DNA of 64,000 nt, from IMG/VR virus record IMGVR_UViG_3300020596_000020, positions 1-64,000 of that record; one strand, written 5' to 3'. The notes beneath the pieces were generated by a model. That model did no database searches, was not told the origin of the DNA, and worked only from the letters and a program-made list of their open reading frames with translations. Numbering within the stretch: position 1 is the stretch's first letter; the number at the start of each line of letters is the position of its first letter. The DNA comes from a virus. Position numbers and translations under genes: made by a program. Positions 27,176 through 64,000 of the stretch are shown here, one piece after another.

Positions 27176-27488
27176 CGAACTCCAGCGGTTTCCACCAGCG
27201 AATGTTGCGACGCTCCTTAAACGAACGGAGCTTGAGCTCCACCCCCGTCAATTCCTTCCAAAGGGCCACAATCTCGAGCTCCATCTGATTGAGAGCAACA
27301 ATGTTCTTGGTACGTTCATCGCGTTTAGTGAATAATTTTCGTGTGTCATTGTCGACTTCATTGAGTATCTGCTCTTTCAGAGATACCCAATCATCAGTCA
27401 AGTCTTTTACCCATATAACTGTTAATCTAATCGCGCGCTCGACTTTCACAGGAATATTATCGTTACTTTGTTTGGGTAACACGCTCAT
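27165..27488 (-). CDS. Hypothetical protein
   Basis: 107 aa, ATGA overlap. Confidence 0.55.
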   Translation of the reverse strand: MSVLPKQSNDNIPVKVERAIRLTVIWVKDLTDDWVSLKEQILNEVDNDTRKLFTKRDERTKNIVALNQMELEIVALWKELTGVELKLRSFKERRNIRWWKPLEFDDE

Positions 27489-27668
27489 GCCACTCGTGAG
27501 TAGTTTAGTTGCTCGAATGACGAATCAGATTGCCACCACGGATTACGACTCGAGTCTTCAAGCGATCGGCACTCCCACTTCTTGATCAGGATGTCACCAT
27601 CACGACGACAGTCAATCACGACGAAGATTTCATCGTGCAGACTCGAGTAGTAGACCTCGCCGACACGA

Positions 27669-28127
27669 TTACACGTCACCGAAAAATCTCTCTTGGAACA
27701 CGCGAGTGACGACGCTTCGCAAGGCATCAAACATGGGGCGTTGGTACTGATGACACTGAGGCATGCTCGTGATCGGGAACCACGCCACTTGGTAGTTCTC
27801 TTCATCCATAGGGAAAGGCACGGTGTCGACGGTGTTCTCGATGCCCACGACGGGGATCGCGAGGAAGATGTGAACAGTCTTGCGTTCGTTGCCGGCGTTG
27901 ACCTCGACGCTGCCAAGAAGTTCAGGCAGGACGAGAACGGCGACGCCGGTCTCCTCGTAGGTCTCGCGCGCGGCCGTGTCGATGTCGTTCTCGTTCGACT
28001 CGGTATGACCTTTGGGAAAACCCCACATGTCTTGCTTAGCGCGTGGTCTGACGAGCAAAACCTCATACATACCATGTTCACCCAGACGGATGGTGGCTGT
28101 GCCGCAACTGGTTGTAAGCTTCTTCAC
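27669..28127 (-). CDS. Nudix hydrolase
   Basis: WGFPKG plus Nudix box GHTESNENDIDTAARETYEETGV. Confidence 0.92.
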   Translation of the reverse strand: MKKLTTSCGTATIRLGEHGMYEVLLVRPRAKQDMWGFPKGHTESNENDIDTAARETYEETGVAVLVLPELLGSVEVNAGNERKTVHIFLAIPVVGIENTVDTVPFPMDEENYQVAWFPITSMPQCHQYQRPMFDALRSVVTRVFQERFFGDV

Positions 28128-34862: not shown

Positions 34863-35161
34863 CAGTTCATCATCCGTTTCCGTTGGGCAAGCTCGTCGAG
34901 CGTCTCGCCTTCCGCTTCCTGAGACTGCATCTGGTCGTCCTCAATGTTGCTCTCGGCCGTGAGGTAACTGCAGATGTCGTCGATCTCGCGCTTGTTACTG
35001 ATCAAGATCTTCGTCAGGTCGATGCAACTCTTTTGCACACCGCTCACCGCTTGTGCGATCCGCAAGATCTGGCTTTCGAGAGTGATCACATGCTCCTTCA
35101 GCGCCGTATTCTCCTCGGACGCCTCAAGTAACATTTTGAATTTCTTGTCCCAAATGCTCAT
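34862..35161 (-). CDS. Coiled-coil hypothetical protein
   Basis: 99 aa, coupled. Confidence 0.55.
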   Translation of the reverse strand: MSIWDKKFKMLLEASEENTALKEHVITLESQILRIAQAVSGVQKSCIDLTKILISNKREIDDICSYLTAESNIEDDQMQSQEAEGETLDELAQRKRMMN

Positions 35162-35439
35162 GTGTCGTCGCTCTCTAACATGTCATAAAGTAGGTCGCTG
35201 TCGACCTGTGACAGAGCGCCGCGCTCGATCCGTTCGTGAAGCTTCCCGTTGTATTTGAGTCTCGCGAGCTCGTCAAGGATAGAGATAGCGCGATCATCGC
35301 CTTCTGCGACTAGTGCGACGAAGCCACCCAGCGTGTCCTGCAACGTCAGTTGTCGCTCGAACGTCGCCACCTTGGTTTTAACGTACGATGATTGTGGTAG
35401 AAGCACATGGATGTTCCGCTTCGCTCCGAACTTCTTCAA
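35158..35439 (-). CDS. Possible ribbon-helix-helix DNA-binding protein
   Basis: RNIHVLLP strand followed by two helices. Confidence 0.4.
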   Translation of the reverse strand: MKKFGAKRNIHVLLPQSSYVKTKVATFERQLTLQDTLGGFVALVAEGDDRAISILDELARLKYNGKLHERIERGALSQVDSDLLYDMLESDDT

Positions 35440-36269
35440 GGGGCGCCGGTGCCTGAACCGCCGCTAGCTGCCGACGGCGCGCCGCCCCCGCCAGGCGCTC
35501 CGCCTGCGCCGGCCGCGGCAGGGCGGTCAGCGAAGCGTTCGCCTTCGAGATCACGTTCCGACTCCAATTCGATGTCGAAGTTCGCACCGAGGACTTGTTT
35601 GAAGTTCTCGGCGGCGTCGGGGCCATACTTCTTCGCGACGTGGTTGTAAGCGCGGCGTGCGATGGTCGCCTTCATGTCGATCAGTGTGTCGGTACGGTCG
35701 ACAAGGGTCGCGATGTCGCTTGCAAAGTCGGTCGCTGAAAACTGTTGCTCCTTCTCAGGATCCGTCGGGTCCATCTCCATATTCGCGGTGCCGGTCGCGT
35801 CGAGCGTCTCGCTCGCCTTCTGAAAGTAGCCGTCGAGCGCAACATCGATTGAATCGTTGGCAATCTGCTGGACGTCGCCAGGTTGGATCTCTGGCTCCTC
35901 GGCAAGCATCCGACGGCCACGTGTGAGCTCCTCAGTGACGAGCTGCGCCAGACGTGAGGCCACAGCGGTCTGGTAGACAGTGACACCCTCGAGCATCTCA
36001 AGACTCTCGGCGACGACTTCGTCCTGCGCGGCCGTGTCTACGTTCTCCAAGAACAGCTCAGCAGCTAACTGAATACGATCGAGGTTCTCAACCATCTCGC
36101 GGCGCGTCACGGTGTGAGTGCATCGGTCGGCGATGTTGTAGAGATGTTTGTCGATGCGTGTGACGATGGCACGAACACTCGACAGAGACGCCATGTACGG
36201 GTCGTTCAGGGCTTCCCGTAGTGAGCTAGCGAGTCGGTTGATCTCAGACTTAATTTCGCTGACTTTCAT
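35436..36269 (-). CDS. Probable head-associated protein
   Basis: LREAL, MLAEE, acidic domain, Gly/Ala tail. Confidence 0.55.
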   Translation of the reverse strand: MKVSEIKSEINRLASSLREALNDPYMASLSSVRAIVTRIDKHLYNIADRCTHTVTRREMVENLDRIQLAAELFLENVDTAAQDEVVAESLEMLEGVTVYQTAVASRLAQLVTEELTRGRRMLAEEPEIQPGDVQQIANDSIDVALDGYFQKASETLDATGTANMEMDPTDPEKEQQFSATDFASDIATLVDRTDTLIDMKATIARRAYNHVAKKYGPDAAENFKQVLGANFDIELESERDLEGERFADRPAAAGAGGAPGGGGAPSAASGGSGTGAP

Positions 36270-37027
36270 CCCATCACCTCTTTCACGGCAGTGACTCGCT
36301 TGAAGCGGTCTTCGATGACTTCCCAGTTTAACTCACGCATCATCGCGGTCAAGTAACCCTTCTTGTCACCGGCGTAGTCACGCACATAAGCGTGTTCCCA
36401 GAGATCGATGACGATGATCGGCAGAATGCCCACCGGAACTCCTTGATCGTGACTGTCGATCGTCACATTAATCAACCGCTTGAGAAACAAACTGTACCCA
36501 CAGACAACCCAACCAGACCGCGACGCGAGCGCTGCGGCCATGAAGTCCTTCATCCACGCGTCGAAAGTGCCCCAATCGCGAGACAGGTAGATGTACGAGT
36601 CCGAGTCCTGGAAGAGCTCCGAGTTGAGATCGAAACAGTTCGCAAAGAAGAGCTCATGCAGGTAGGTCGCGTTGAGATTGTAGACCTCGTCCTTCTTTAC
36701 CGAGCGGTACGCGGAGTGCGCCGAGCTGACGTTCTCTTTGTCGGCTGCGTCGACCTCAGCGCTGACGCGAGTCAGTAGCTCGGTATAGGACTTATAAAGC
36801 TGCTCGTGATGCTTCTTGGCCGGCTCAGATAGGTGATTAGTCGTCATGGAGTACGACTTGTTCTGCGCCACATAGGCCTCGTCAAGGAACGAACTCTTCG
36901 ATTGCGCGGTCTTCCTGTCTTTGCCACGAATCTCGGCCGCGACCTCCTTGACGCATGCCGCAGCGAGGTCAGAGATGTCGGCGTCGCTAAACTCCGGGAT
37001 GTGCAACTTAGTCAAGATCGAACCCAC
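36266..37027 (-). CDS. sod: Fe/Mn superoxide dismutase with N-terminal extension
   Basis: KKHHEQLY, LHELFF, SGW, DLWEHAY. Confidence 0.88.
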   Translation of the reverse strand: MGSILTKLHIPEFSDADISDLAAACVKEVAAEIRGKDRKTAQSKSSFLDEAYVAQNKSYSMTTNHLSEPAKKHHEQLYKSYTELLTRVSAEVDAADKENVSSAHSAYRSVKKDEVYNLNATYLHELFFANCFDLNSELFQDSDSYIYLSRDWGTFDAWMKDFMAAALASRSGWVVCGYSLFLKRLINVTIDSHDQGVPVGILPIIVIDLWEHAYVRDYAGDKKGYLTAMMRELNWEVIEDRFKRVTAVKEVMG

Positions 37028-37304
37028 TTTCCAGTTGTTGATCGGAGACGTTGACCGTCTGCCCGGTGGGGTCGAGGAGGATCACGGAGTCAGGCCCCAC
37101 AGCCTTGACAGTGTAGAGGCGGCCGTACGGCTTGTCTCGGACCTTCAATCCGGGGGTGATGATCTTCTTCTCAGTGCCGCCGACGTTCATGTTGACGTCA
37201 ATGTTCTCAGTGAGCGAAGGCATCTCAACGCGCAAGGCGTCGAGTTGCTTCGCTCGCTCCTCTCGAAGGAGCTTGAGAATCACGTCAGAATCAAGCTTGT
37301 TCAT
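37008..37304 (-). CDS. Probable head-associated protein, first gene of a late operon
   Basis: MNKLDSDVILKLLREE; TATCTA 9 nt upstream. Confidence 0.55.
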   Translation of the reverse strand: MNKLDSDVILKLLREERAKQLDALRVEMPSLTENIDVNMNVGGTEKKIITPGLKVRDKPYGRLYTVKAVGPDSVILLDPTGQTVNVSDQQLESGFDLD

Positions 37305-37483
37305 GCTACACGATAGATACGAAGTCTTCGTCAGAAGGGATAAAACCAGAACAGGTGGAATCATTCCATCTGTTCAAGCTGCGGGATTCTATGTGCCCAT
37401 TTCGGGTTATAGCGTGCCCGACAGCTGAATTTTGATATAGTGGAACTTGTCCGCGTGACCGCCCCAATCGATGACAAATGTGT

Positions 37484-38074
37484 TCATAAATTTCCGGTCC
37501 CCAGGTCGGCGTACTTCACAACCTCGATGCCTGAAGCACACAGAATCACAAGACCTTCATTGTTTCTGTAACTTTCGAGGTACACGACGCGACTAACTCC
37601 TCGATTGACGAGGATCTTCGCGCACATCTTGCAGGGCTGAGTCGTCACGAAACAGACCGAGTCATGCAGGTCGTCTCGAGACTTTGTGAGCGCGTTTACC
37701 TCGGCATGAATGCACCCGCAGTTGCCAGGTTCGCAGCTATCGCAACCGTTTGGGCCGCCAGCGTAGCTGCCGTTGTAACCGGAACAAAGCACGCGCATCA
37801 TATTTATGTCGGTAAAGACAGCTCCAACCTGGAGACGGTCGCAGGTAGCCTGCTTCGCCATCTCACCAGCATGGATCATATATATCTGTTCTTTTCGTGG
37901 TCGGTAGCTGACAGCGTTAACGTTTGGCTTGACGTACGCGACAAGCTTCTCGGGCACAATGATCAGTTTTTTCGCAGGCAACCCCGTAGCCGCCTCAAGT
38001 GCTGCATCGATCGCTTGACGCACCTCGGGTTCAAGGTCGCACGAATTACTCTTGAAGGAGTTTTTCTCGGTCAC
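37484..38074 (-). CDS. dCMP deaminase
   Basis: C.RLQVGA, GYNG, HAEVNA, PCKMC. Confidence 0.92.
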   Translation of the reverse strand: MTEKNSFKSNSCDLEPEVRQAIDAALEAATGLPAKKLIIVPEKLVAYVKPNVNAVSYRPRKEQIYMIHAGEMAKQATCDRLQVGAVFTDINMMRVLCSGYNGSYAGGPNGCDSCEPGNCGCIHAEVNALTKSRDDLHDSVCFVTTQPCKMCAKILVNRGVSRVVYLESYRNNEGLVILCASGIEVVKYADLGTGNL

Positions 38075-38193
38075 GTTGTCACCGTCCCATCACATTAAAC
38101 ATGACGTACATGTATTCTATTAGCAATCTGCACTGGACTGTTACTCTTCCGTTCGACGTGAACTCAGCAACGTCAACTTCGAATTGTTAGACT

Positions 38194-38754
38194 TCATACA
38201 TCCTCGAGACACGGGTGGTGCGCGCGACAACGAGGCTCGTAACTCTCCTTTCCACCAATGACGATGTCACCCACGACGTCGTCAATCTTGCGATAAGTGT
38301 AGAAGGCGTCGCGACCGCATACCGAGCACGCACTGGGGCACTTAACCACCTTTGTGGCCCATGGCAGGATCCTGGAGACCTCGTCGAACGGCTTGCAGGC
38401 GTACGACAAGTCTAGAGTCGCAACGACCACGTCAACACCGCGATTGTAGAACCAAACCAGCGTGTCGGCCACGTTATCAAGCATGAAGAGTTCGTCGACG
38501 ACGATGAGACTGTTGTTGAAGTCCTTCGCGTTGTCAAGCATGTACGTCTCGATATCACGGCCGGACTTGACACATACGGCCGGGATGGACCAACCCATGT
38601 GCGTCACGATGTTCTCGGATGAGTAGCGGTTGTCGACCGTCGGTTTGAAGGCGTGAACCTCACGACCGGCGTGACGATGCTTTTCGACCTCAAGCAGCAT
38701 CCTACTTGTCTTGCCGCCCCACATCGGTCCGCAATAAACGGTCAAATTGTTCAT
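38194..38754 (-). CDS. tdk: Thymidine kinase
   Basis: GPMWGGKT, D.RY, VDE, CSVC, IGG..YEPRCR.H. Confidence 0.95.
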   Translation of the reverse strand: MNNLTVYCGPMWGGKTSRMLLEVEKHRHAGREVHAFKPTVDNRYSSENIVTHMGWSIPAVCVKSGRDIETYMLDNAKDFNNSLIVVDELFMLDNVADTLVWFYNRGVDVVVATLDLSYACKPFDEVSRILPWATKVVKCPSACSVCGRDAFYTYRKIDDVVGDIVIGGKESYEPRCRAHHPCLEDV

Positions 38755-38984
38755 TCCACTTTCGATCTTAGCCGCTCAGCGATGTTTATCGCGTAGGCAG
38801 CCATGTAGCCGTTGGTGTACTCAAAGCCGTCGGCTTTTTCAAGCTGTTTCATGATGAGCTCGATGTCGCCGCCGACCACGTGATCACGTAACAACAGATA
38901 TAGGAAAGCAACGAGCTTGTCGTCGCTCACCACATTGTCGGACCGGTTCTTGAGCCCCGCGTTCACTTCGTCACCAATCGACAA
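38751..38984 (-). CDS. Hypothetical protein
   Basis: 77 aa, FLYLLLRDH, YTNGY. Confidence 0.6.
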   Translation of the reverse strand: MSIGDEVNAGLKNRSDNVVSDDKLVAFLYLLLRDHVVGGDIELIMKQLEKADGFEYTNGYMAAYAINIAERLRSKVE

Positions 38985-39766
38985 CGATCAGGCAGGCTCC
39001 GCACGCTCTTCGCGCCGGCTGAACAGCACAACTCGAGCAGATTCTCGCGCATAGCGTCCGCGATGGACTTGACGATGAAGTCGAGATCTTCATCTGCGGC
39101 GAACGGGCCGCCAAAGTGGACGAGCGCCGCGTCAGCCCCAGCGACAAGCGCCTTGCAGACGTCGGTCGTGCTGCTCGCCGTCGAGATGACAGGCACGTCG
39201 ATCGCACGTGAGATCGACTCGATGAGTGTGATGCGTGGAACTGAGATCCCGATCGACTCGAGCCGAATGGTGGTCGCTGCCTGCGTCGGCCCAACGAGGA
39301 TGGCGGCAGCCACCTGTAGTTCGTTCGCGAGCGCGAGCGCGTGACGCGTTGACAGCGAGCAGCCAATCACCAGCGCCTGCGCGTCGTCGGTGAGTGTGCG
39401 GATGTCGGCCATGCTGTCGGCGCGAAGCGGGTCGAAACGCTCGAACAGCTTGTAACCGAGCATTTCGACCTTGACGTTCTTATCGTTCGTGACCAGCTCA
39501 TCCTCGGTCGACGACATGTTCGCGAGCGGGATCTGCGAGGCAGGCGCGCCGGCGGTAATGAGACCGTACTTGCGACAGACTTCCTCCATCTTTGAGATGC
39601 CTTCCGGGTCGTCGTAGTAAACGATCAATGGAAGCGTCGAGTGAAGCGTCCCCAATATGAAAGAGAGATCTGGATCGGTGACCTCTTGCTCGTACGAAAC
39701 GTACTTCTCGTCGATGAAGACATTCACATCTTCGTAGTCGTACTTGTTGTTTTCGCGGTGATTCAT
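38963..39766 (-). CDS. Degenerate IMPDH/GMP-reductase-like TIM barrel
   Basis: YEDV, TTIR..IG..VP.IT, VPVI, DVCKALVAGADA, AGAKS; catalytic Cys loop and phosphate motif missing. Confidence 0.5.
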   Translation of the reverse strand: MNHRENNKYDYEDVNVFIDEKYVSYEQEVTDPDLSFILGTLHSTLPLIVYYDDPEGISKMEEVCRKYGLITAGAPASQIPLANMSSTEDELVTNDKNVKVEMLGYKLFERFDPLRADSMADIRTLTDDAQALVIGCSLSTRHALALANELQVAAAILVGPTQAATTIRLESIGISVPRITLIESISRAIDVPVISTASSTTDVCKALVAGADAALVHFGGPFAADEDLDFIVKSIADAMRENLLELCCSAGAKSVRSLPDRCRLVTK

Positions 39767-40011
39767 TCTTTCCCTCTGTCTTTCGTGATGCAAGAACACT
39801 TCACGTACCCAAGGCCTTGTTCAAAGGTTCCGAGTGATGTTACGGCGTCGACACATTGCGTCTCGCAGGCGTCGAAGTTGACACGCTTGTTGGCTTCGTA
39901 ACCGGTGTCGCAGCTAGCGAACACGAGAAACAACATAAACAGTATCACCATACCCATGAGAACGATGAAGACCGTGCCAAGGATCCGTTGCACGCTCTCC
40001 CAAAACTTCAT
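39763..40011 (-). CDS. Small membrane protein, Cys-rich
   Basis: N-terminal TM, C..QC, CSC. Confidence 0.5.
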   Translation of the reverse strand: MKFWESVQRILGTVFIVLMGMVILFMLFLVFASCDTGYEANKRVNFDACETQCVDAVTSLGTFEQGLGYVKCSCITKDRGKE

Positions 40012-41009
40012 CGCGTCAACTCCTTGAAGCACGCAATGGACAGGCCTTCGCGGAACCATGTTTCAAGATCTGTCATTCCCAACTTCTTGGCACGATGAGC
40101 GAGCAGAATGTGCACCCAGTCTGTCCACAACACATCACTGAGCATGCGCGCCGCGCTGCCGATCTTCACGAGCTCGTCAGAGGTAGTCGCCGCTCGACCT
40201 TGCGCCTCGAAGATCATCATTTCCTCGATCGGGGGAGGGCCAGGCAATCGAGGCATTGCGTGACGCATCTGTGTCTTGCCGCTCGCGTTGGACAGGATGT
40301 CCTCACACATCTTGTAATGACGATCGTACACATGCATTGAATTGCTGGTATGATAGTAGAAGCCGAGCTCGAGACCAAGCTCCATCGCCATCATCTCCTG
40401 CATAAAGGTAAAGGCGGGGACGTCGAGCGCCGTGCCAAGGATGAGGTCGTTTGAGCGCATCTGAACGATGAGATGCAGCTTCTCATCACGGATGAAAAAT
40501 TGCAAATTGAGCGTGCATGGCATGTCCTTCACAGCCAACATACTATCCTGCGGCTGACGGATATGAATAACGCCGCGACGCGAGTCACGATCGCGAGTGA
40601 GCTCGTCCTTGACGTATTGCCACTGGTTCCAGCTGATGAGCGTGTCTGCCGAAGTCCACGCGTCATGATACTCATGCTGCTTGAAGATGCGCGCACCGTA
40701 CGCCGAGTTGGCGGTCTTGCCATCGTCGCTAATCGCCTCCCAAAACTTGCTATACGTCGAAATCCAAGCAGTTTCGTTGTTGCCCGAGATGTACCACAGG
40801 ATCTCAGCCATAACGTAATCGAGCGGGAAGTTCCGCTCAGGCACGTAGAGTAGTCTGTCACGCGGGTTCGTAATGACGAACGAGGTAAAGAGATTCTCGC
40901 GGATCTTCATGCCGCGAGGCGCCGTCTCATAGTCGTACCCCTCGTACGTCCCCTGAACTAGAGCGTAGTAGGCGTCGGTGAAACTCTCAAAAACCATCAT
41001 CTGTTGCAT
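40008..41009 (-). CDS. Thymidylate synthase-family enzyme of dCMP (hydroxy)methylase type
   Basis: AEILWY, AYG.R, DSRR, DMPC, MRSNDLILGTALD (Asp at the E. coli ThyA N177 position), SMHVY. Confidence 0.85.
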   Translation of the reverse strand: MQQMMVFESFTDAYYALVQGTYEGYDYETAPRGMKIRENLFTSFVITNPRDRLLYVPERNFPLDYVMAEILWYISGNNETAWISTYSKFWEAISDDGKTANSAYGARIFKQHEYHDAWTSADTLISWNQWQYVKDELTRDRDSRRGVIHIRQPQDSMLAVKDMPCTLNLQFFIRDEKLHLIVQMRSNDLILGTALDVPAFTFMQEMMAMELGLELGFYYHTSNSMHVYDRHYKMCEDILSNASGKTQMRHAMPRLPGPPPIEEMMIFEAQGRAATTSDELVKIGSAARMLSDVLWTDWVHILLAHRAKKLGMTDLETWFREGLSIACFKELTR

Positions 41010-41763: not shown

Positions 41764-41978
41764 GCGACCTTCTTCCAGTAAACAGCGATGGACACACCAC
41801 GATGGAACAGATCGTCCCTCTGAATGGTGAGATGACCCCTCTGAAGGGAAAACCTCTCGGATGTGATCTCGAAGTACTCATAGATCGAGTGTCCAGGTAT
41901 GAGCGAGCGTTGAAGACTGACTATCCAAAAGAGGCGATCTTCGGCTTCCCACAGGTCACCAATCTTCACAATGTTCAA
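41760..41978 (-). CDS. Hypothetical small protein
   Basis: VKIGDLWE start. Confidence 0.5.
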   Translation of the reverse strand: MNIVKIGDLWEAEDRLFWIVSLQRSLIPGHSIYEYFEITSERFSLQRGHLTIQRDDLFHRGVSIAVYWKKVA

Positions 41979-42910
41979 AACAACGGCGACTCGAGTGCCC
42001 AGAGACGTGTCTCCTCAAGCCCAGGCCAGAAGTCGGTAAGCGGCTTGTAGCCGAGCACTCTCTGACAGGCCGAGATGTCCGCCTGGGTCGCACGCACGTC
42101 GCCGGCGCGCCAGTCGGCATGCTTGACACGTGACTGGATCTCAGGGTGTTTGGAGGCGAAGTGCTTGAGAATCTGCTTATTACTGACGCTCCCACCGGTG
42201 CCAGCGTTGAAGGCTTCGCCACGAAGACGACCTTGGTGAGCGGCCACTCGCACGAAGATGTCCACGACGTTGTCCACATGCGTCATGTCACGTGTCTGTG
42301 AGCCGTCTCCGTCGCTTCGAAGCTCTCCGTCATGCTTGATTGCGTGCAGCCATGACGAGACGACCGTCCCGTACGCGCCATTAGCAAGCTGACGCGGGCC
42401 GAAAACATTAAAGGGACGAACGCACGCAGTGTCCATGTCGTACAGATCCGCGAACATGACACAGTAGTCCTCGCCGATCATCTTCTGAAGAGCGTAGGGC
42501 GACTTCGGGTCGCGAGGCGCGCTCTCCTTAGTAGGAAGCTGCTGCGCGCCGCCGTAGACTGAGCTAGACGACGTGAAGACGAACCTTCCGACCACACCGC
42601 GGCACGCTTCCAATAGTTTCACGGTGTTGCCGACGTTCTCGTCGTTCGTCTCAGCCGGGTGCTCCACCGAGTAGGACACACGAGGACGTGCTGCGAGGTG
42701 GAACACGGTGTCAAACTGTGACTGCTTGATGAAGCGAAGCACGCTCGGATCGGCGTAGTTGCTGTACAGCGGGACCGCTCCAGTCGGAACGAACTCGACG
42801 CGACCGTTCGAAAGATCATCGACCACCACAACCTGGTGGCCCTCTTTGACGAGGCGTTCAGCGAGGTGAGAACCGATGAAGCCCGCGCCGCCCGTTACCA
42901 AAGTTTTCAT
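41975..42910 (-). CDS. NDP-sugar 4-epimerase (extended SDR, WbpP/TviC-like)
   Basis: TGGAGFIG, HLAA, SSSSVYG, PYALQK, FNVFGPRQ, GDGSQTRD. Confidence 0.9.
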   Translation of the reverse strand: MKTLVTGGAGFIGSHLAERLVKEGHQVVVVDDLSNGRVEFVPTGAVPLYSNYADPSVLRFIKQSQFDTVFHLAARPRVSYSVEHPAETNDENVGNTVKLLEACRGVVGRFVFTSSSSVYGGAQQLPTKESAPRDPKSPYALQKMIGEDYCVMFADLYDMDTACVRPFNVFGPRQLANGAYGTVVSSWLHAIKHDGELRSDGDGSQTRDMTHVDNVVDIFVRVAAHQGRLRGEAFNAGTGGSVSNKQILKHFASKHPEIQSRVKHADWRAGDVRATQADISACQRVLGYKPLTDFWPGLEETRLWALESPLF

Positions 42911-43137: not shown

Positions 43138-43334
43138 GGCTCGTATCGAGTCAAGTAGATCGATCCAGTGGTCGGCATCGTCAACCCGCCCTCATCGTTG
43201 TCCCACGTGTACGTCATCATATTGCCGTGAACGAGGTTGAGCAGCTCCCACATGCAAGGAACGGCGTCATTTTTCCTTGTTCCGACGACGAGATACAGCG
43301 AACGGCCGTAGTGGTGCCAGAGTGTACCGATCAT
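43134..43334 (-). CDS. Hypothetical small protein
   Basis: MIGTLWHH start by ATGA overlap. Confidence 0.5.
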   Translation of the reverse strand: MIGTLWHHYGRSLYLVVGTRKNDAVPCMWELLNLVHGNMMTYTWDNDEGGLTMPTTGSIYLTRYEP

Positions 43335-44992
43335 ACCATCGCGTCCAAAATGTACTGAGGAAGGATGTGCTTGTTCTTGCGTAGGAACGCTTCGAAGCAA
43401 CCGTCAAGCACATATGTCACTGCCCAATCTTTTTCGTTGCGTACGCTACGACCAACAGCTTGAACGAAAGATCTCGTTGTCAAATAGTCGTAGTACCAAG
43501 GATCACGATCACAGCGTTTCTTTAAGCTTTTGTCACCCAAATTTGGATAGGGAAGTTTCGCGACGATCTGAAATCTGGATAGATCATCATCAAGCGAGAT
43601 TCCCTCGGTCATGGAGGGGGAGACAAGGACTGTTGGTTCAGGACTGTCGTGATGGCGACGTAGCACCGCATCGCGGTCCTCGCTCCCATGTACAAGAAGG
43701 CGGGGATCACGAAGACTGTCACGTAGATGATGAGCAACCCTAAAATTCGTTGTGTGGATGATGCCCTTTTGATCACTGTGAGCCTCTAGCAAGGCCTTCA
43801 CGGCTTGCACTAGTCGAGGGAGCGTGTCGTCGACGTCACGCATCGACATCTTGCCAACGGGCATGTAATGAATGGCGCGGTTTTCGACGGGAAACGTGGA
43901 TGGTAGCGCGATGTACTCGGTCTTATCGAGGTCGAGGCCGAGCGAACGACAGAACGACGTCTTGTCGAGGATGGTGGCGCTCATGAGCAGTCGTTTCTCG
44001 CCGAACCTCAACAGATACGGCTCCGCCCAGACTGATGCGTCAATGGGCTTGAACTGCAGCGTCATACGGTCGCCTCGATGATCCTTGCGAATCTCGCGGT
44101 TGATGATCCATTCCTCAGGTTTGAACCGATCGATGAAGCGGTTGACCTTGCAGATGTGCTTGTCGAACAGATCGTTTTGTTTGATGAGCTGCTGGAACAT
44201 CTCGTCGCCGCCGACGCCGCGATTGTCAGCGAACATTCCAAGCGCGCTTTTCACTTGGTCAAACATCTGGGCAAGCGCCGGCCGATACGTCTCCTTGATC
44301 CAGCGATAGAGGTACTCGGGATCCTCACCTTTTGCCATCGTCATGCCGAGATGCTTCTTGCAGAAGCGGTCCGTGACCTCGACCTCGACGAACTTGCAAA
44401 CCTCGGACTCGATGTTATGAGCTTCGTCACCAACGAGTAAGTCTCGCGGCTCGAGTTTGCCAGCATAGGTTGTCTCGGCCATGAAGTACGAGTAGTTCGT
44501 GATGCCGAGGTGACCTTGAATGAACGAACGCTTCGCAATGTTGTATGAACAGTTCGATGAACAATGTTTCTTCCAATTTGTGCCGTCAGCTGACTTTCCG
44601 AGAGCTGTCAGGGCTCGTTTGGATTCACCACAACTCTGTCGCTCGTCGTAGCCGCATTGGTAGTTCGTCGCGCTCTTCAACTCGAGCATCCCACCTCGAC
44701 GCTTCTCCTCGAAGTCACGCAAGTACTGCTGCTGCAGGATCTTCTGCGTCGTGAGGAAGTACGCCCCGATGTTGTACTCGTCCTCTGAATTTTGGCTGCG
44801 GATCTGGCTGTTCAGGTATCGTGCGACTGTCATACCGATAGCGGACTTGCCGACACCAGTCGGAGCGTCAACACAAACAGTGTTCTTCCCCTTCGCGAAG
44901 GCCTCGAGGATCGTGTCGATAGCCTTGATCTGGCCTTCACGAGGCTCGGAGTCGAGAGGGAAGTACTCACGCCAGTTCGTCATCAGTAGCAA
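43331..44992 (-). CDS. DinG/XPD-family SF2 helicase
   Basis: Q motif REGQ, APTGVGKS, Cys cluster, DEAH, MSAT, EGI, QAVGRSVR. Confidence 0.92.
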   Translation of the reverse strand: MLLMTNWREYFPLDSEPREGQIKAIDTILEAFAKGKNTVCVDAPTGVGKSAIGMTVARYLNSQIRSQNSEDEYNIGAYFLTTQKILQQQYLRDFEEKRRGGMLELKSATNYQCGYDERQSCGESKRALTALGKSADGTNWKKHCSSNCSYNIAKRSFIQGHLGITNYSYFMAETTYAGKLEPRDLLVGDEAHNIESEVCKFVEVEVTDRFCKKHLGMTMAKGEDPEYLYRWIKETYRPALAQMFDQVKSALGMFADNRGVGGDEMFQQLIKQNDLFDKHICKVNRFIDRFKPEEWIINREIRKDHRGDRMTLQFKPIDASVWAEPYLLRFGEKRLLMSATILDKTSFCRSLGLDLDKTEYIALPSTFPVENRAIHYMPVGKMSMRDVDDTLPRLVQAVKALLEAHSDQKGIIHTTNFRVAHHLRDSLRDPRLLVHGSEDRDAVLRRHHDSPEPTVLVSPSMTEGISLDDDLSRFQIVAKLPYPNLGDKSLKKRCDRDPWYYDYLTTRSFVQAVGRSVRNEKDWAVTYVLDGCFEAFLRKNKHILPQYILDAMV

Positions 44993-53248: not shown

Positions 53249-55687
53249 TTAGTAAAGAATACCGCCGCTCGTCGGTACGTATTTCTTTGGGCCGTAATCC
53301 CAACAGAAACCGACCGTTGCTGAAGATGTGTTCGCAGCAATTGTGCCAACGCCGATGTTGTTGTTCAAAGGCGTTACCACGGTCTTGCCAGTGGCTGTTG
53401 GATTTGGGAAGATCGCTCCCCACACACCAGAAACACCGCGCAGCCTGCTGTCATTCAAGTAAATGATCATCCCTTTCCACGACAGCGGCACAGGGTTTTT
53501 GTTGGTGTAGGTGTAAACTTTACACCCGCCACTACCCCAATCGTACGTCTTCACTGCGGTGACAACGAGAGGGAGGCAACCCTTTGCGCTGACTGTTCCC
53601 TTGACACTTGGACACAGATCGTTGACGTCGAGCACCCCATCGCCGTCAGTGTCGGTCGTCGGAGAAACGTATGTGCACGACTGACTGAGTGTGGGTGTGC
53701 CAGAGCATACAGTCGGATTCGAGGTCACCGTTCGCGTTTGCGTTCCGTTAGATTGGCAAACGTTCCAAGTCGAGTACGTGAACGTGCAAACAGGAGGAAC
53801 ATATGTACACGACTGTGTGAGCGACGCAGACGTCCCAACACAACCGACCGGCAACGAAGTGACGGTTCGCGTCTGCGTTTCCGTTGACGAACACGATGAC
53901 CACGTTGAGTATGTGAAGACACACGACGGAGGAGGCAAAGGCGCGCTGTCAGTCATCCAACCCGCGTTCATGAAGGGCAGCAAGCTGTTGATGAGATCAT
54001 ATTTGGTGCCGGTCGTCCCCACGTCGTTGTCCCAGTGACTACCAGGCTTCTCGATGAACGTCACCGGGAACCCGCGAGTCTTCAAGATGTTCATATTGTT
54101 ACGCACGTTGGCGATCGCGTAGTACGTGATGGTATCGCCGGTGTGAGCAAGGTGAGCGATGTTGAGCTTCCAGCTCGCGGTCGTGGACGCCGTCATGGCA
54201 GTCACGCTCGGATTGGTGTTCTCGAAGATGAGTCCAGAGAACAAATTTGCGTTCTTGAACGCGAGCTCGTACCCGATGTCACCGCCGGACGAGTATCCTC
54301 CGAGAATCACGCGACGCGGATCGACGTTAAAATGTGTCTTCATGTTCGCGATGGCGGCGAGGATCTTCGCACCGTCGGTCGCGTAGTTGGACCAACAAGC
54401 TCCCTCACGACCACCGACAGCAAGTGTGATCCAGTTCTGTGCGCCGCCAGGCGACACCATCCAGGCGTCGTACTGCGCCTGTCCACCGCATCCGTGGAGC
54501 CAGACGAGTAGTGAGATCGGAGTGGCGTGCGTCGCGTCGTAACTCGCTGGGACGTACGCCCAGTTGGTCTGACCGCTGTTGGTCGTAAAGACTGTGCTCT
54601 TCGTGTAGGCGATGGGGTTTGTCACCGGCGACGTTGTGGTCGGCGACAAAGTAAGGAACGGTGTGAGCCAGGCTGTCTGTGGGCGATCGACGCCTGCTTT
54701 CGGCTCGAGCGTGAGCATATACTCACCCCACCACGGTCCAGCAGCCCACCATGCCCAGCCAACGAGCACGTCAGAGTTGACGGTCGCGTACGTGAGGAAG
54801 TCCGTCACAGCAGCCTTACACGTCGACGTGTTCGGTGTTCCGATCTCGCCGACCCAGATCTTCTTGCCGTTCTGTCGAGCCCATGCCACGACTGCGGTCA
54901 TGCGAGTCGATCCAATAGTGGAGTTGACGCAATCTGTGCCGCCGCCACTACCGTCACTGTCGAAGTAGTTGTGCACCTCGAAGATCGAGTTGTTACCGCT
55001 GTCCACGTACTTGAGAAGCGCGACGGAGTTGGCCGTCCCGTACCAGGTCGCAGTCCAGCTGTGAGCGCCTGACCACGCGTTGCCAGGCACCGACACCACA
55101 TTCGTCGCTCCCGTGGCTCGAATGGCCGCGGTGGCCGCGTTGGCAGTGATCACCCACTGCTCGGTGGGCATGTCGTGCGGCTCGTTGACGAGGCCGAACA
55201 CAACCTTGAGATTGGACTTGTACTTGACGGCGAGTCGCGACCAGAGGTTCGCGAACACACTGGAGGGGACTTGTGTCGTGCCTACAACGCCATCATAGTA
55301 ACGGGCGAAGTTGTGCGGATTAAGAACGACCGTCAAACCTTTCGACGTCGCGTAGACGACGATGGCGTTGAGATCAGTCTCGTACGTCGGCACAAACGCG
55401 CCGTTGGCTGTCGGCTGCAGACGTTCCCATAAAAAACCGACACGAACCGTGTTCATGCCCTTACTAGCGAAATAGTCGACTTCGCTTGTTGTCGGCCAAA
55501 CATAATCGGTGCCCTTGACGCCAGGCTTTGCAGTACCAAACTCGGCTCCAGCGAGATTGATGCCGTGCATCGCGGGAAGACTGACTTCAGTCTTGGGGAA
55601 GTCGCTGCGACCGATATGCGGGTAACAGCCGACGGTTATCAGCACGGTGCTGACGATAAGAATGAGATATCGGATGATCTTGTTCAT
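53249..55687 (-). CDS. Multidomain lipoprotein: GH5 endoglucanase + alpha/beta esterase + TSP1-like repeats + Ca-binding repeat + CBM2-like domain
   Basis: Lipobox TVGC; GINLAGAEFG, HNFARY, NEPH, HNY, GEIG, WWAAG; LHGCG, GYSSGG; two C.FTYSTW..C...TQTRTV; DTDGDGVLDVNDLCP; DWGSG. Confidence 0.88.
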   Translation of the reverse strand: MNKIIRYLILIVSTVLITVGCYPHIGRSDFPKTEVSLPAMHGINLAGAEFGTAKPGVKGTDYVWPTTSEVDYFASKGMNTVRVGFLWERLQPTANGAFVPTYETDLNAIVVYATSKGLTVVLNPHNFARYYDGVVGTTQVPSSVFANLWSRLAVKYKSNLKVVFGLVNEPHDMPTEQWVITANAATAAIRATGATNVVSVPGNAWSGAHSWTATWYGTANSVALLKYVDSGNNSIFEVHNYFDSDGSGGGTDCVNSTIGSTRMTAVVAWARQNGKKIWVGEIGTPNTSTCKAAVTDFLTYATVNSDVLVGWAWWAAGPWWGEYMLTLEPKAGVDRPQTAWLTPFLTLSPTTTSPVTNPIAYTKSTVFTTNSGQTNWAYVPASYDATHATPISLLVWLHGCGGQAQYDAWMVSPGGAQNWITLAVGGREGACWSNYATDGAKILAAIANMKTHFNVDPRRVILGGYSSGGDIGYELAFKNANLFSGLIFENTNPSVTAMTASTTASWKLNIAHLAHTGDTITYYAIANVRNNMNILKTRGFPVTFIEKPGSHWDNDVGTTGTKYDLINSLLPFMNAGWMTDSAPLPPPSCVFTYSTWSSCSSTETQTRTVTSLPVGCVGTSASLTQSCTYVPPVCTFTYSTWNVCQSNGTQTRTVTSNPTVCSGTPTLSQSCTYVSPTTDTDGDGVLDVNDLCPSVKGTVSAKGCLPLVVTAVKTYDWGSGGCKVYTYTNKNPVPLSWKGMIIYLNDSRLRGVSGVWGAIFPNPTATGKTVVTPLNNNIGVGTIAANTSSATVGFCWDYGPKKYVPTSGGILY

Positions 55688-56241
55688 ATATTTTCCTTAC
55701 GGTCGCTGAGACCTTCTTCGACGGCAAACTCGATCTCACGTAACTCGCGGTCGAGATCTTCGTCTGAAGTATCAAGAAAGATATGACGTGTCTTCAGGCG
55801 CGGCGCGCACTGCTTGTAGAGGGTGTCGATCGCCGTGATCTGGTCCTCTTTGATGGTGATATCATCTTCGTCGACCCGGCCAACGTACCCCTGTAGTCGG
55901 GTACACACGACGATAAGCGCGTTCATGCGTGCGTACGCTTCATCGAGCTGCGCGACGACATCAGGGTCGGTCGGGCGGCCGAAGTGTTTCGAGTAGACAA
56001 TCTCAGATGGAAAGTTGCGGTCAAGAATGACCGATGTGTCAGTCTGCTCAAGGAAGTCCGCCAGCGTCGTCTCGCCAAAACGGAGGAAGGGCAGAAACTG
56101 CGACCGGTCGCTCATGAAGAACTTCTTCTGGACTTGCGCCTTAAAGATCGGAATGTCGAGACTGGCAGAGAGAGCCTTAGCAATCTCAGTTTTTCCGACC
56201 CTCTCCGTCCCTTCTAGGATAATGATTCTCTGTTTGCTCAT
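55684..56241 (-). CDS. Deoxynucleoside monophosphate kinase (TMPK-like)
   Basis: IILEGTERVGKT P-loop, ILDR..PSE.VY. Confidence 0.82.
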   Translation of the reverse strand: MSKQRIIILEGTERVGKTEIAKALSASLDIPIFKAQVQKKFFMSDRSQFLPFLRFGETTLADFLEQTDTSVILDRNFPSEIVYSKHFGRPTDPDVVAQLDEAYARMNALIVVCTRLQGYVGRVDEDDITIKEDQITAIDTLYKQCAPRLKTRHIFLDTSDEDLDRELREIEFAVEEGLSDRKENI

Positions 56242-58061: not shown

Positions 58062-59081
58062 TCACTTCAATCTCTCTTTCATCCACTTGATCGTCTTCTC
58101 AAGCCCGTCGCGCAGTGACACAGTTGGCCTATACCCCAATGTGATACGGGCTAGCGCCAAGCTCGGCTTGCGAACCTTTGGATCGTCGACTGGCAGAGGC
58201 TCGTTGACGATGATTAGTCGCGGAAACCACTCCGACAATGCCTCGGCGAGCTCGATGATCTTGAACTCACCGTCGTTACCGAGATTGACTGGCGCGCTCG
58301 GCGGCTTCGGCGTCTCCCCCAGTTTGCGTAGCCCAGTGACGAGGTCGCTGACGTAGCAGAAGCTCCTCGTTTGGTCGCCGGCGCCGTACACTGTGAGCGG
58401 CTCGCCGCGGATCGCCTGACGGATGAAGTTGCTAACTACACGCCCATCATCTGGGTCCATACGCGGACCATAAGTGTTGAAGATGCGCGCAACACGGACA
58501 TTCGTGTTTGCTTGGAGGAACTCGTAGCAGAGCGTCTCGGCACAACGCTTACCTTCGTCGTAGCAAGAGCGAGGACCCCAAGTGTTGACGTTACCCCAAT
58601 ATGCTTCGGTCTGTGGGTGCTCGAGCGGGTCCCCGTAGATCTCGCTCGTCGAGGCTTGCACGAAAGCGGCTTTGTGCGCTCGAGCAACCGCGAGCAAATT
58701 GGCTGTGCCCACCACGTTTGTCATGATCGTGCTGAAACCGTCAGTCTGATAGGCACGCGGCGAAGCTGGGCAAGCAAGGTTGTAGACGACGTCGTAAGTT
58801 GTGAGCACTCGACCGTTGTCACGGGCTGTCGAGGTGGTCACCGACGCGGACGTGACGTCGCCATAGTTTACCTGCATGAGCTTCTCAGGTTCGCCGTTGA
58901 AGTCGGATGCGTTGTCAAACTCATCTAGAAACTTGATGTTCTCAGGGTTCCCCGTGCTCATGTTATCGATCACGTCAACAAACCACCCAGAGACCACGAG
59001 ACTCTCCACGAGGTGCGAACCGATGAAGCCGGCTCCGCCGGCCACGAGCGCATATTTTCGACCTAGATGCATACAGATCAA
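58062..59081 (-). CDS. UDP-glucuronate decarboxylase (UDP-xylose synthase)
   Basis: GGAGFIG, LACPASP, STSEIYGDP, YWGNVN, RSCYDEGKR, DGRVVSNFI. Confidence 0.9.
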   Translation of the reverse strand: MICMHLGRKYALVAGGAGFIGSHLVESLVVSGWFVDVIDNMSTGNPENIKFLDEFDNASDFNGEPEKLMQVNYGDVTSASVTTSTARDNGRVLTTYDVVYNLACPASPRAYQTDGFSTIMTNVVGTANLLAVARAHKAAFVQASTSEIYGDPLEHPQTEAYWGNVNTWGPRSCYDEGKRCAETLCYEFLQANTNVRVARIFNTYGPRMDPDDGRVVSNFIRQAIRGEPLTVYGAGDQTRSFCYVSDLVTGLRKLGETPKPPSAPVNLGNDGEFKIIELAEALSEWFPRLIIVNEPLPVDDPKVRKPSLALARITLGYRPTVSLRDGLEKTIKWMKERLK

Positions 59082-61859: not shown

Positions 61860-62459
61860 TTAGAAGTTACCACGTACGGGCGGGAAATTGTTCTCTTCTA
61901 ACGTCATAGACAGGCTTTTCCATGACGTGACGCGTCGGATGCCAGCTCCAAGCTTGACGCGGTTCCATGGTTGATCGAAAAGGATCGGAAGCGGACCTTT
62001 GCAACCATCAAAAATGCGTTCTCCGCGGTAGTATGCCCACTTTTCGATGTTTTCCACCTTGTCGTCGACAAGGATATCGGAGTCGAAGAACTCCTTCTGA
62101 CTAAGGAAACAGACGTTCTTGCGCGACAGGCCAAGATTCTCGACCATCCAGTCCTCACGACCCTCGTACCAATGCAGCACGTCGTACGGGGCAGTGACGA
62201 TCATCACTGTGTACTCCTCCTGTGCCGCGCGACCGAACTCAATCGCTCCAGGGTAGGCTTGCATGTTTCGACAGAAGTCGGGCTGTGCAACGATCTCTCG
62301 TCTGTACATCGTCTCTAACTTCTCGTCGTCGTCGAAGACACTCCAGTTAGTAACGTCAGCGAGCGTTTTAAAACGACCGTGGGAGTTGATAAACTTCAGA
62401 GCCGGGGTCGTAAAATCGACCAACACACCATCCGCATCAAGTGCGAGGACAGGTTTCAT
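61860..62459 (-). CDS. 5'(3')-deoxyribonucleotidase (HAD, NT5C-like)
   Basis: LDADGVLVDF, VTAP, LVDD, FDQPWN. Confidence 0.88.
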   Translation of the reverse strand: MKPVLALDADGVLVDFTTPALKFINSHGRFKTLADVTNWSVFDDDEKLETMYRREIVAQPDFCRNMQAYPGAIEFGRAAQEEYTVMIVTAPYDVLHWYEGREDWMVENLGLSRKNVCFLSQKEFFDSDILVDDKVENIEKWAYYRGERIFDGCKGPLPILFDQPWNRVKLGAGIRRVTSWKSLSMTLEENNFPPVRGNF

Positions 62460-63782: not shown

Positions 63783-64000
63783 TAATACTCCTTGACGAGG
63801 TTGAAATACAGCGAGACGACAAGTGTTATTAAAGAACAACGACGCCGATTATATTCACGTCGAGCCAATCTTGTCGTTGGCGTTTCTCGTCTGCTTCGAG
63901 ATCTCACCTGCTCGATCAAGCAAGTCAGCGATGTTACGTTCGAGACGTACGCGACAACTAGGCGTGAGCGTGAGCAACTGTGTCTCCTGACCGATGGAAG

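Follow-up and report, generated by a model that had tools for sequence, protein, structure and literature searches.

What does a phage make with a thymidylate synthase (TS) homologue that carries an Asp, the mark of cytosine selection, at the position of Asn177 in Escherichia coli ThyA? This question is raised by an open reading frame (ORF) at 40008-41009, on the minus strand of the IMG/VR virus record IMGVR_UViG_3300020596_000020, of which the first 64 kb (64,000 nucleotides, hereafter the window) have been analyzed. The record is linear, 81.6 kb long and about 24% complete according to CheckV; it is a fragment of a jumbo-phage genome, the contig having been found in microbial-mat metagenomes and belonging to an uncultured giant phage. 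The sequencing runs listed for it are all DNA runs of mat metagenomes, two of which are possible sources, with no RNA run among them. From the sequence, we consider it likely that the ORF encodes a folate-dependent deoxycytidylate 5-hydroxymethylase, i.e., a functional equivalent of T4 gp42 built on a longer, MilA-like scaffold, and the phage thus characterized probably carries hydroxymethylcytosine (hmC) in its DNA.

Regarding the protein itself, it scores 96.4 bits against Pfam PF00303 (cut-off 24.3) and is of the long, "MilA-shaped" type, its C terminus being extended by helices. Its closest solved relative is MilA (5jnh/5b6d), an enzyme of mildiomycin biosynthesis, with an E value of 2.5e-42 over residues 6-305 in HMMER, while solved ThyA chains are matched at 1e-17 to 1e-10. 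The minus-strand stretch 40463-40398 translates to QMRSNDLILGTALDVPAFTFMQ, reading Q-M-R-S-N-D-L-I-L-G-T-A-L-D from position 40463, and the second Asp of this peptide is encoded by GAC at 40424-40422. This residue, Asp196, aligns on E. coli ThyA Asn177, with HMMER against the solved ThyA chains as well as with MAFFT against E. coli ThyA. The gene and its decisive codons are the following:

40008-41009, minus strand: TS-fold protein of 333 amino acids, predicted deoxycytidine monophosphate (dCMP) 5-hydroxymethylase (PF00303, MilA match, active site).
40422-40424, minus strand: codon (GAC) of Asp196, equivalent to E. coli Asn177, selector of cytosine over uracil (HMMER and MAFFT alignments).
40524-40526, minus strand: codon of Asp162, equivalent to E. 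coli Leu143 (MAFFT alignment; invariant in the close and distant sets described below).
40515-40517, minus strand: codon of Cys165, the catalytic nucleophile, equivalent to E. coli Cys146 (alignment, conservation among homologues).
40446-40448, minus strand: codon (GAC) of Asp188, equivalent to E. coli Asp169, the Asp being kept (minus-strand reading, alignment).

Two sets of homologues were examined, a close one made of the nearest 120 proteins (46-100% identity) and a distant one made of the best 150 representatives of 50%-identity clusters (34-62% identity). Asp196 is invariant in both (120/120 and 150/150) and is hence no chance change; the Asp that an initial annotation of this DNA had placed opposite Asn177 is thus confirmed by the strand reading, by both alignments and by its invariance. 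The catalytic and ligand residues C165, R144, R145, R185, S186, H226, Y228 and E69 (E. coli C146, R126', R127', R166, S167, H207, Y209 and E58) are likewise present and invariant in the close homologues. About 25 of the 150 nearest cluster representatives are fusion forms of 460-640 amino acids in which the TS-like part is N-terminal.

Asp at position 177 is reported to select cytosine (Hardy and Nalivaika; Liu and Santi; Graves et al., as reported in the papers that cite them). In order to assign the product, we took the 12 residues located near the substrate C5 in ThyA from published work (PMC13326640) and added other diagnostic positions. The characterized relatives, drawn from public phage records, were T4 gp42 (dCMP hydroxymethylase) and SPO1 gp29, a deoxyuridine monophosphate (dUMP) hydroxymethylase, together with the 5-hydroxy-dCMP synthases RB69 gp48 and its Pootjesviridae (RL2RES) homologue, the TS of PaMx74 (Pamexvirus, Xp12 group, with 5-methylcytosine (5mC) DNA) and the ThyA proteins of E. 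coli (NC_000913), RB69 and RL2RES. MilA was compared by HMMER alignment only, the MAFFT alignment and the tree excluding it. In E. coli ThyA numbering, the residues are:

Position 80: W here, W in T4 gp42, A in the 5-hydroxy type, W in PaMx74, W in ThyA.
Position 143: D here, D in T4 gp42, E in the 5-hydroxy type, N in PaMx74, L in ThyA.
Position 147: T here, T in T4 gp42, T in the 5-hydroxy type, P in PaMx74, H in ThyA.
Position 165: M here, M in T4 gp42, M in the 5-hydroxy type, L in PaMx74, Q in ThyA.
Position 167: S here, S in T4 gp42, S in the 5-hydroxy type, S in PaMx74, S in ThyA.
Position 168: N here, N in T4 gp42, Q in the 5-hydroxy type, S in PaMx74, C, V or A in ThyA.
Position 169: D here, D in T4 gp42, N in the 5-hydroxy type, D in PaMx74, D in ThyA.
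Position 173: G here, G in T4 gp42, V in the 5-hydroxy type, G in PaMx74, G in ThyA.
Position 177: D here, D in T4 gp42, D in the 5-hydroxy type, D in PaMx74, N in ThyA.

In the MAFFT alignment, the TS-like protein is identical to T4 gp42 at all nine positions. The D-T-D-D signature that it displays at 143, 147, 169 and 177 is invariant in the 120 close homologues and present in 144 of the 150 distant representatives, all of which keep Asp at 143, 169 and 177. An acidic residue at position 143 has been correlated with hydroxymethyl, not methyl, products through water access, and the change D169N is the mark of 5-hydroxy-dCMP synthases (PMC13326640). With the same diagnostic residues and, moreover, the same catalytic Cys, Glu, Arg pair and His/Tyr as T4 gp42 (EC 2.1.2.8; PDB 1b49, 1b5d, 1b5e and 6a9b), the protein is predicted to have the same substrate and the same product, although the two are distant in sequence (E 1.3e-10, HMMER) and T4 gp42, with 246 amino acids, is devoid of the C-terminal helical extension of about 90 residues found here. 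Of the alternatives offered by the initial annotation, specificity for cytosine nucleotides and the production of 5-hydroxymethyl-dCMP for DNA are therefore favored by this identity with T4 gp42, while the other branch, 5-methyl-dCMP as a route to thymidine monophosphate (dTMP), is disfavored for the reasons given below. In a maximum-likelihood tree, the family stands apart from a clade uniting ThyA and PaMx74 (100/99) and from the 5-hydroxy clade (100/99).

The mechanism that we propose would start with the attack of Cys165 on C6 of dCMP, Asp196 orienting and protonating the cytosine ring, and would continue with the addition of the one-carbon unit of methylene-tetrahydrofolate to C5. Asp162, which replaces the hydrophobic Leu143 of ThyA, would admit water and the exocyclic methylene would thus be hydrated, giving 5-hydroxymethyl-dCMP (hm-dCMP) and tetrahydrofolate. 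A phage kinase (the one encoded at 55684-56241 or a Tmk-like one whose gene lies beyond the window) and the host nucleoside diphosphate (NDP) kinase would lead to the triphosphate hm-dCTP, to be incorporated by the phage DnaE-type replicase. dTMP would be made separately, with dCMP deaminase and dUTPase supplying dUMP to ThyX, an enzyme carried by relatives and probably encoded here in the unsequenced three quarters of the genome. In most relatives, an adjacent GT-B glycosyltransferase would finally put a sugar on the hydroxymethyl group.

The surroundings of the gene bear on this proposal. Between 37484 and 41009, the ORFs encode the 333-residue TS-fold protein, a membrane-like protein of 98 residues, proteins of 278 and 77 residues, and two enzymes of nucleotide metabolism:

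37484-38074, minus strand: dCMP deaminase of 196 amino acids with a 60-residue N-terminal extension (PF00383, E 5.8e-18).
38194-38754, minus strand: full-length thymidine kinase of 186 amino acids (PF00265, E 9.5e-36).

The closest solved relatives of the deaminase are the dCMP deaminases of cyanophage S-TIM5, Streptococcus mutans and T4, with the HAE and PCxxC zinc motifs aligned. Related loci were obtained by scanning IMG/VR with an alignment as query, which was required since the TS-like protein used as a single query found none; 69 were recovered, many on contigs of 150-324 kb. In 61 of them, tblastn places the deaminase gene at no more than 10 kb from the TS-like gene, and a thymidine kinase gene is present in 44. 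Both had been put forward as members of a modification route, and as conserved neighbors they hold their place, while being ordinary enzymes by sequence. The simplest reading is that the deaminase, with dUTPase, gives dUMP for ThyX. In T4, cd likewise supplies td, and dCMP deaminase is kept beside the hmC pathway. Some deaminases whose genes lie at most 3 kb from an Asp-type TS gene in modified contigs have been reported to prefer cytosine nucleotides with a 5-methyl or 5-hydroxymethyl group (bioRxiv 10.1101/2024.12.05.627091).

For gene content, five large relatives (270-324 kb, 74-100% complete, two of them at least 92% complete; 44-55% identity to this phage in the TS-like protein) proved informative. 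Each has exactly one TS-fold gene and all five carry ThyX, so that the thymidylate supply of the lineage is independent of the TS-fold gene; dihydrofolate reductase (DHFR) was found in none of the five. The combination of ThyX with no DHFR fits a hydroxymethylase, which releases tetrahydrofolate.

These data weigh on the first of the rival explanations, a dCMP methylase of the Xp12/PaMx74 kind (EC 2.1.1.54) whose 5-methyl-dCMP would be converted to dTMP by the deaminase or would end up as 5mC DNA. That Asp at position 177 alone makes ThyA a dCMP methylase is quoted secondhand in the literature, the deaminase gene is 1.9 kb from the TS-like gene, deamination of 5-methyl-dCMP to dTMP is a published phenomenon, and five of seven tested metavirome TS genes, in cis with deaminases acting on 5-hydroxymethyl-deoxycytidine (5hmdC), made 5-methyl-dCMP (bioRxiv 10.1101/2024.12.05.627091). 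Here, however, position 143 is Asp rather than the Leu of ThyA or the Asn of PaMx74, positions 147 and 165 carry the T and M of T4 gp42 instead of the P and L of PaMx74, and the PaMx74 enzyme clusters with ThyA, away from the TS-like family. A methylase would moreover call for DHFR, and the five large relatives have ThyX and no DHFR. A methylase is consequently improbable, and so is the dTMP route of the initial annotation.

About as improbable is the possibility that hm-dCMP is made and then deaminated to 5-hydroxymethyl-dUMP, the modified base in DNA being a thymine analogue, 5-hydroxymethyluracil (5hmU) or a derivative. The retention of the deaminase in the module of most loci speaks for it, as does the report that seven deaminases in cis with Asp-type TS genes convert 5hmdC into 5-hydroxymethyl-deoxyuridine in vivo (bioRxiv 10.1101/2024.12.05.627091). 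On the other side, the deaminase of this phage is ordinary by sequence and nearest to the S-TIM5 and T4 enzymes. T4, as said, retains such a deaminase in the presence of hmC, and the ThyX and thymidine kinase of the relatives point to a normal thymine supply.

With a lower probability still, the protein could be a flavin- and O2-dependent 5-hydroxy-dCMP synthase of the RB69 gp48/DLP3 gp80 type, 5-hydroxycytosine then serving as the sugar acceptor. Such enzymes likewise have Asp177, an acidic residue at 143 and MilA as their best structural match (PMC13326640), and sugar-nucleotide genes are found near the TS-like gene; their D169N change is absent here, though, Asp188 being invariant in both homologue sets, the protein retains W80 and G173, which are A and V in RB69 gp48 and in the RL2RES homologue, and the 5-hydroxy proteins form the separate clade mentioned above. 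Similarly, there is very little chance that the enzyme is a cytidine monophosphate (CMP) hydroxymethylase like MilA or BcmA, producing a free base or nucleoside metabolite and no DNA precursor. MilA, which shares Asp at the Asn177 and Leu143 positions with the TS-like protein, is its nearest solved relative over nearly the full length, C-terminal extension included. The CMP preference of MilA has been traced to Ala176 and Lys133 (PMC5175136), but the equivalents here, Ser186 and Arg144, are both of the deoxy type, and MilA-type residues are scarce in the distant set (Ala in 6/150, Lys in 4/150). Furthermore, no MilB-like N-glycosidase was seen, and MilA is an enzyme of bacterial secondary metabolism, whereas the TS-like gene is embedded in a phage module for replication and deoxynucleoside triphosphate (dNTP) metabolism. 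An ordinary thymidylate synthase (EC 2.1.1.45) or a dUMP hydroxymethylase, as the Pfam and PHROG family name "thymidylate synthase" would have it, is hardly credible given the invariant Asp in place of Asn177, which every characterized dUMP enzyme aligned keeps, scores far under the cut-offs of the NCBIfam ThyA equivalog models (at most 78 bits for cut-offs of 108-576, the best being 78 versus 327) and the ThyX of the relatives.

Returning to the dCMP 5-hydroxymethylase, the 69 loci, whose ORFs were clustered, reveal a conserved module in the order DnaE, small P-loop kinase, a protein of 351 or 434 amino acids, one or two short-chain dehydrogenase/reductase (SDR) sugar-nucleotide enzymes and the TS-fold gene, followed by uridine diphosphate (UDP)-galactopyranose mutase (20 loci), thymidine kinase, dCMP deaminase and then unknowns, including a protein with a Fe/Mn superoxide dismutase (SOD) C-terminal domain. 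An all-alpha nucleoside triphosphate pyrophosphohydrolase is encoded about 5 kb from the TS-like gene in 32 of the 69 loci (phrog_12184, E 1.3e-17); it is the type of enzyme that T4 uses as dCTPase. The 351- and 434-residue neighbors had no Pfam or PHROG match, and a language-model look-up designated both as GT-B proteins. An AlphaFold model of the former, built from 27 sequences (predicted local distance difference test (pLDDT) 92.9), has a GT-B fold, resembles the T4 beta- and alpha-glucosyltransferases (TM-score (TM) 0.60-0.64) and also matches bacterial GT4 enzymes, which the published DNA arabinosyl- and glucosyltransferases likewise resemble. With these module genes and this GT-B model, the lineage holds the T-even parts, namely hydroxymethylase, kinase, pyrophosphohydrolase and transferase. 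PF09198 (T4 beta-glucosyltransferase) found no match in six records, but as the control sequences were likewise unmatched, this negative carries no information. In about 20 relatives (e.g., L044:11017-13224, L013:11016-13170, L061:10920-13213), the mutase gene and a GT-B gene of the T4 beta-glucosyltransferase-like kind directly follow the TS-like gene, so that the modified base of that sublineage may bear a furanose.

In the record under study, sugar-nucleotide, nucleotide-pool and other genes of interest are spread over the window, as follows:

41975-42910, minus strand: NDP-sugar 4-epimerase of the GalE/WbpP/TviC type, 311 amino acids (PF01370, E 1e-55).
55684-56241, minus strand: P-loop nucleotide kinase, weakly dTMP-kinase-like, 185 amino acids (PF13521; TIGR00041, E 1e-5).
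58062-59081, minus strand: homologue of UDP-glucuronate decarboxylase (UDP-xylose synthase, UXS), 339 amino acids (human UXS1 2b69, E 4.9e-85).
62481-63839, minus strand: NDP-sugar 6-dehydrogenase, TviB/Cap5O-like, 452 amino acids (PF03721, PF00984 and PF03720; PDB Cap5O).
61860-62459, minus strand: 5'(3')-deoxyribonucleotidase of the NT5C type, 199 amino acids (PF06941, E 3.3e-16).
27669-28127, minus strand: Nudix hydrolase, 152 amino acids (PF00293, E 2.3e-14; Nudix box at 27951-28010).
38963-39799, minus strand: TIM barrel of 267-278 amino acids derived from inosine monophosphate dehydrogenase (IMPDH) or guanosine monophosphate (GMP) reductase (AlphaFold2 model, Foldseek, profile against PDB).

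The neighbors named in the initial annotation (deaminase, thymidine kinase, a deoxynucleoside monophosphate-type kinase, 5'-nucleotidase and Nudix) are thus all recovered by Pfam or NCBIfam matches. The kinase at 55684-56241 is a candidate hm-dCMP kinase whose homologue adjoins the TS-like module in 58-64 of the 69 loci; in the present sublineage, the module is loosened and this gene is 15 kb distant, adjoining that of a GH5 lipoprotein. Just past the window end are a Tmk-like kinase (64147-64794 of the record) and dUTPase, and the Nudix enzyme could act on the dNTP pool. The epimerase gene, about 1 kb upstream of the TS-like gene, encodes a protein matching UDP-glucose 4-epimerase in PDB (7ys8, E 2.3e-50); tblastn matches to it occur in 65 of the 69 loci, a figure in which it is not separated from the paralogous UXS-type SDR of the same cluster. 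A counterpart of the UXS homologue is encoded no more than 10 kb from the TS-like gene in 64 of the 69 loci, and the dehydrogenase scores 336.8 bits with TIGR03026, above the cut-off, and 348.7 bits with the TviB model, below it.

The barrel gene sits between the TS-like and thymidine kinase genes, only in this sublineage; in other relatives the slot is taken by UDP-galactopyranose mutase, an SDR sugar-nucleotide enzyme or a small ORF. The AlphaFold2 model (pLDDT 86.6) matches IMPDH, GMPR2 and flavin mononucleotide barrels in Foldseek (TM 0.6-0.7), and the family profile finds IMPDH 7xlo in PDB (E 7.8e-9), with the GPGSICTT loop aligned to GPTQA-x-TT. The protein has neither CBS domain nor catalytic Cys, an Ala occupying the Cys position of the GPGSICTT loop. 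Its family comprises 25 proteins, all from close relatives, one of which is on a near-complete 259.8-kb genome of this sublineage; when metagenome contigs were scanned with the family, the genes returned were nearly all of the ordinary IMPDH kind, a single short true relative being among them. On the basis of these genes, there is a small chance that the sublineage decorates hmC with a pentose or N-acetyl-pentosamine of the xylose/arabinose type, made by its own TviB-like dehydrogenase, UXS and 4-epimerase, or that it processes hm-dCMP through the Cys-less IMPDH-like barrel; either the pentose-type sugar or the barrel route would, if true, be a cytosine hypermodification not yet described chemically.

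Several points weigh against the assignment of a dCMP hydroxymethylase serving hmC DNA. The activity and the DNA chemistry of the whole clade are predicted from sequence only, and the rules on acidic residues at position 143 and on D169N are correlations from a limited set of characterized enzymes. The phylogeny proposed in the initial annotation did set the family apart from ThyA and PaMx74, but it left T4 gp42 on a branch of length 6.5 and did not place the family with it; the deep nodes and the position of T4 gp42 are not settled, with long branches, and for this reason membership in the T4 gp42 functional class rests on residues and not on phylogeny. Full replacement of cytosine, glycosylation and a separate dTMP route are extrapolated from relatives as distant in their TS-like protein as the five described. 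Pfam, the hidden Markov models (HMMs) of the relatives and tblastn detected no dCTPase-like pyrophosphohydrolase, glycosyltransferase or ThyX in the 81.6-kb record, and UDP-galactopyranose mutase was likewise absent from it (tblastn and HMMs of the relatives' GLF); these absences say little because three quarters of the genome are missing. Finally, the large relatives carry clusters of two to five GT1-family genes far from the module (G001-G005; e.g., at 132-146 kb in G004 and 192-206 kb in G005), and the sugar-nucleotide enzymes of the phage may therefore be used, in part or entirely, for a different glycan.

How does this system compare with those already described? That its kind is the T-even hmC pathway, an already known anti-restriction device, is well supported. 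As in T4, there are a phage-borne deaminase, kinase candidates and, in relatives, a GT-B neighbor resembling DNA glucosyltransferases; however, T4 pairs gp42 with ThyA (td) and DHFR, whereas these phages have ThyX and no DHFR. Asp177-type TS genes with deaminase genes within 3 kb have been tied to cytosine-modified metavirome DNA by MetaGPA (PMC8670742; bioRxiv 10.1101/2024.12.05.627091). The present locus has the same proximity, and the all-alpha pyrophosphohydrolase partner of the MetaGPA systems is seen in relatives of this phage, but the TS genes tested were mostly 5-methyl-dCMP synthases akin to those of Xp12 and PaMx74, while a hydroxymethylase signature is found here, and this lineage consists of jumbo phages that have a DnaE replicase, not PolA. 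RB69 gp48, DLP3 gp80 and RL38J1 gp216 (PMC13326640) are also TS-fold proteins with Asp177 and an acidic residue at 143, encoded beside a Tmk-like kinase, a GT-B protein and sugar-nucleotide enzymes, and the likeness extends to the UDP-galactopyranose mutase of 20 relatives; in contrast, the sugar route would proceed here through dehydrogenase, UXS and 4-epimerase, and in the 5-hydroxy clusters from ribulose-5-phosphate to arabinofuranose. Sorting of methyl, hydroxymethyl and hydroxy products by signature has also been published (PMC13326640; bioRxiv 10.1101/2024.12.05.627091). What appears particular to this phage is the MilA-like length, the pairing with ThyX and DnaE, a sugar-nucleotide set suggestive of a pentose-type sugar, and the IMPDH-like barrel in the transferase slot.

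A widespread environmental lineage of jumbo phages, with hundreds of protein clusters, genomes up to about 320 kb, a DnaE replicase and ThyX, thus probably replaces cytosine by hmC. Such DNA is of relevance for the evasion of restriction and CRISPR, for its behavior in sequencing and cloning, and for the mining of hmC-handling enzymes (kinases, transferases, deaminases), and with the residue list given above, Asp-type TS homologues can be classified simply as producers of methyl, hydroxymethyl or hydroxy compounds. The T-even system being textbook knowledge and the Asp177 class having already been connected with modified DNA in metaviromes, the advance is an incremental one, except if new chemistry is revealed for the sugar or the IMPDH-like neighbor.

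Regarding the remainder of the window, its genes are almost all on the minus strand and include a GroEL-type chaperonin, a split DnaE polymerase with an intein, RecA, a gp32-like single-stranded DNA-binding protein, a class II-like ribonucleotide reductase, DnaB, ligase, Fpg and Dam; a megablast search with 20 kb of it gave no match among 50,697 phage records. A DinG/XPD-like helicase (DEAD_2, Helicase_C_2; 43331-44992, minus strand) is located between the epimerase and DnaE and is common to only two or three related loci, indicating that the module has been rearranged in this sublineage. An 812-residue protein of the GH5 cellulase family (53249-55687, minus strand) overlaps the start of the kinase gene by 4 bases, and the Nudix gene was hidden in the longest-ORF call by an overlapping ORF of 198 residues (27485-28081) that is read in a different frame and matches no family. 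The 98-residue ORF (39763-40059, minus strand) encodes a single segment of strong hydrophobicity and shares 52 bases with the 3' end of the TS-like gene; it matched no family, and the related loci contained no homologue of it. Finally, a 253-residue protein (36266-37027, minus strand) matches only the Fe/Mn SOD C-terminal domain; in 62 of the 69 loci, it is conserved at some 4.8 kb on the downstream side of the TS-like gene, and three conserved unknowns follow it (35436-36269, 37008-37364 and 35158-35439).

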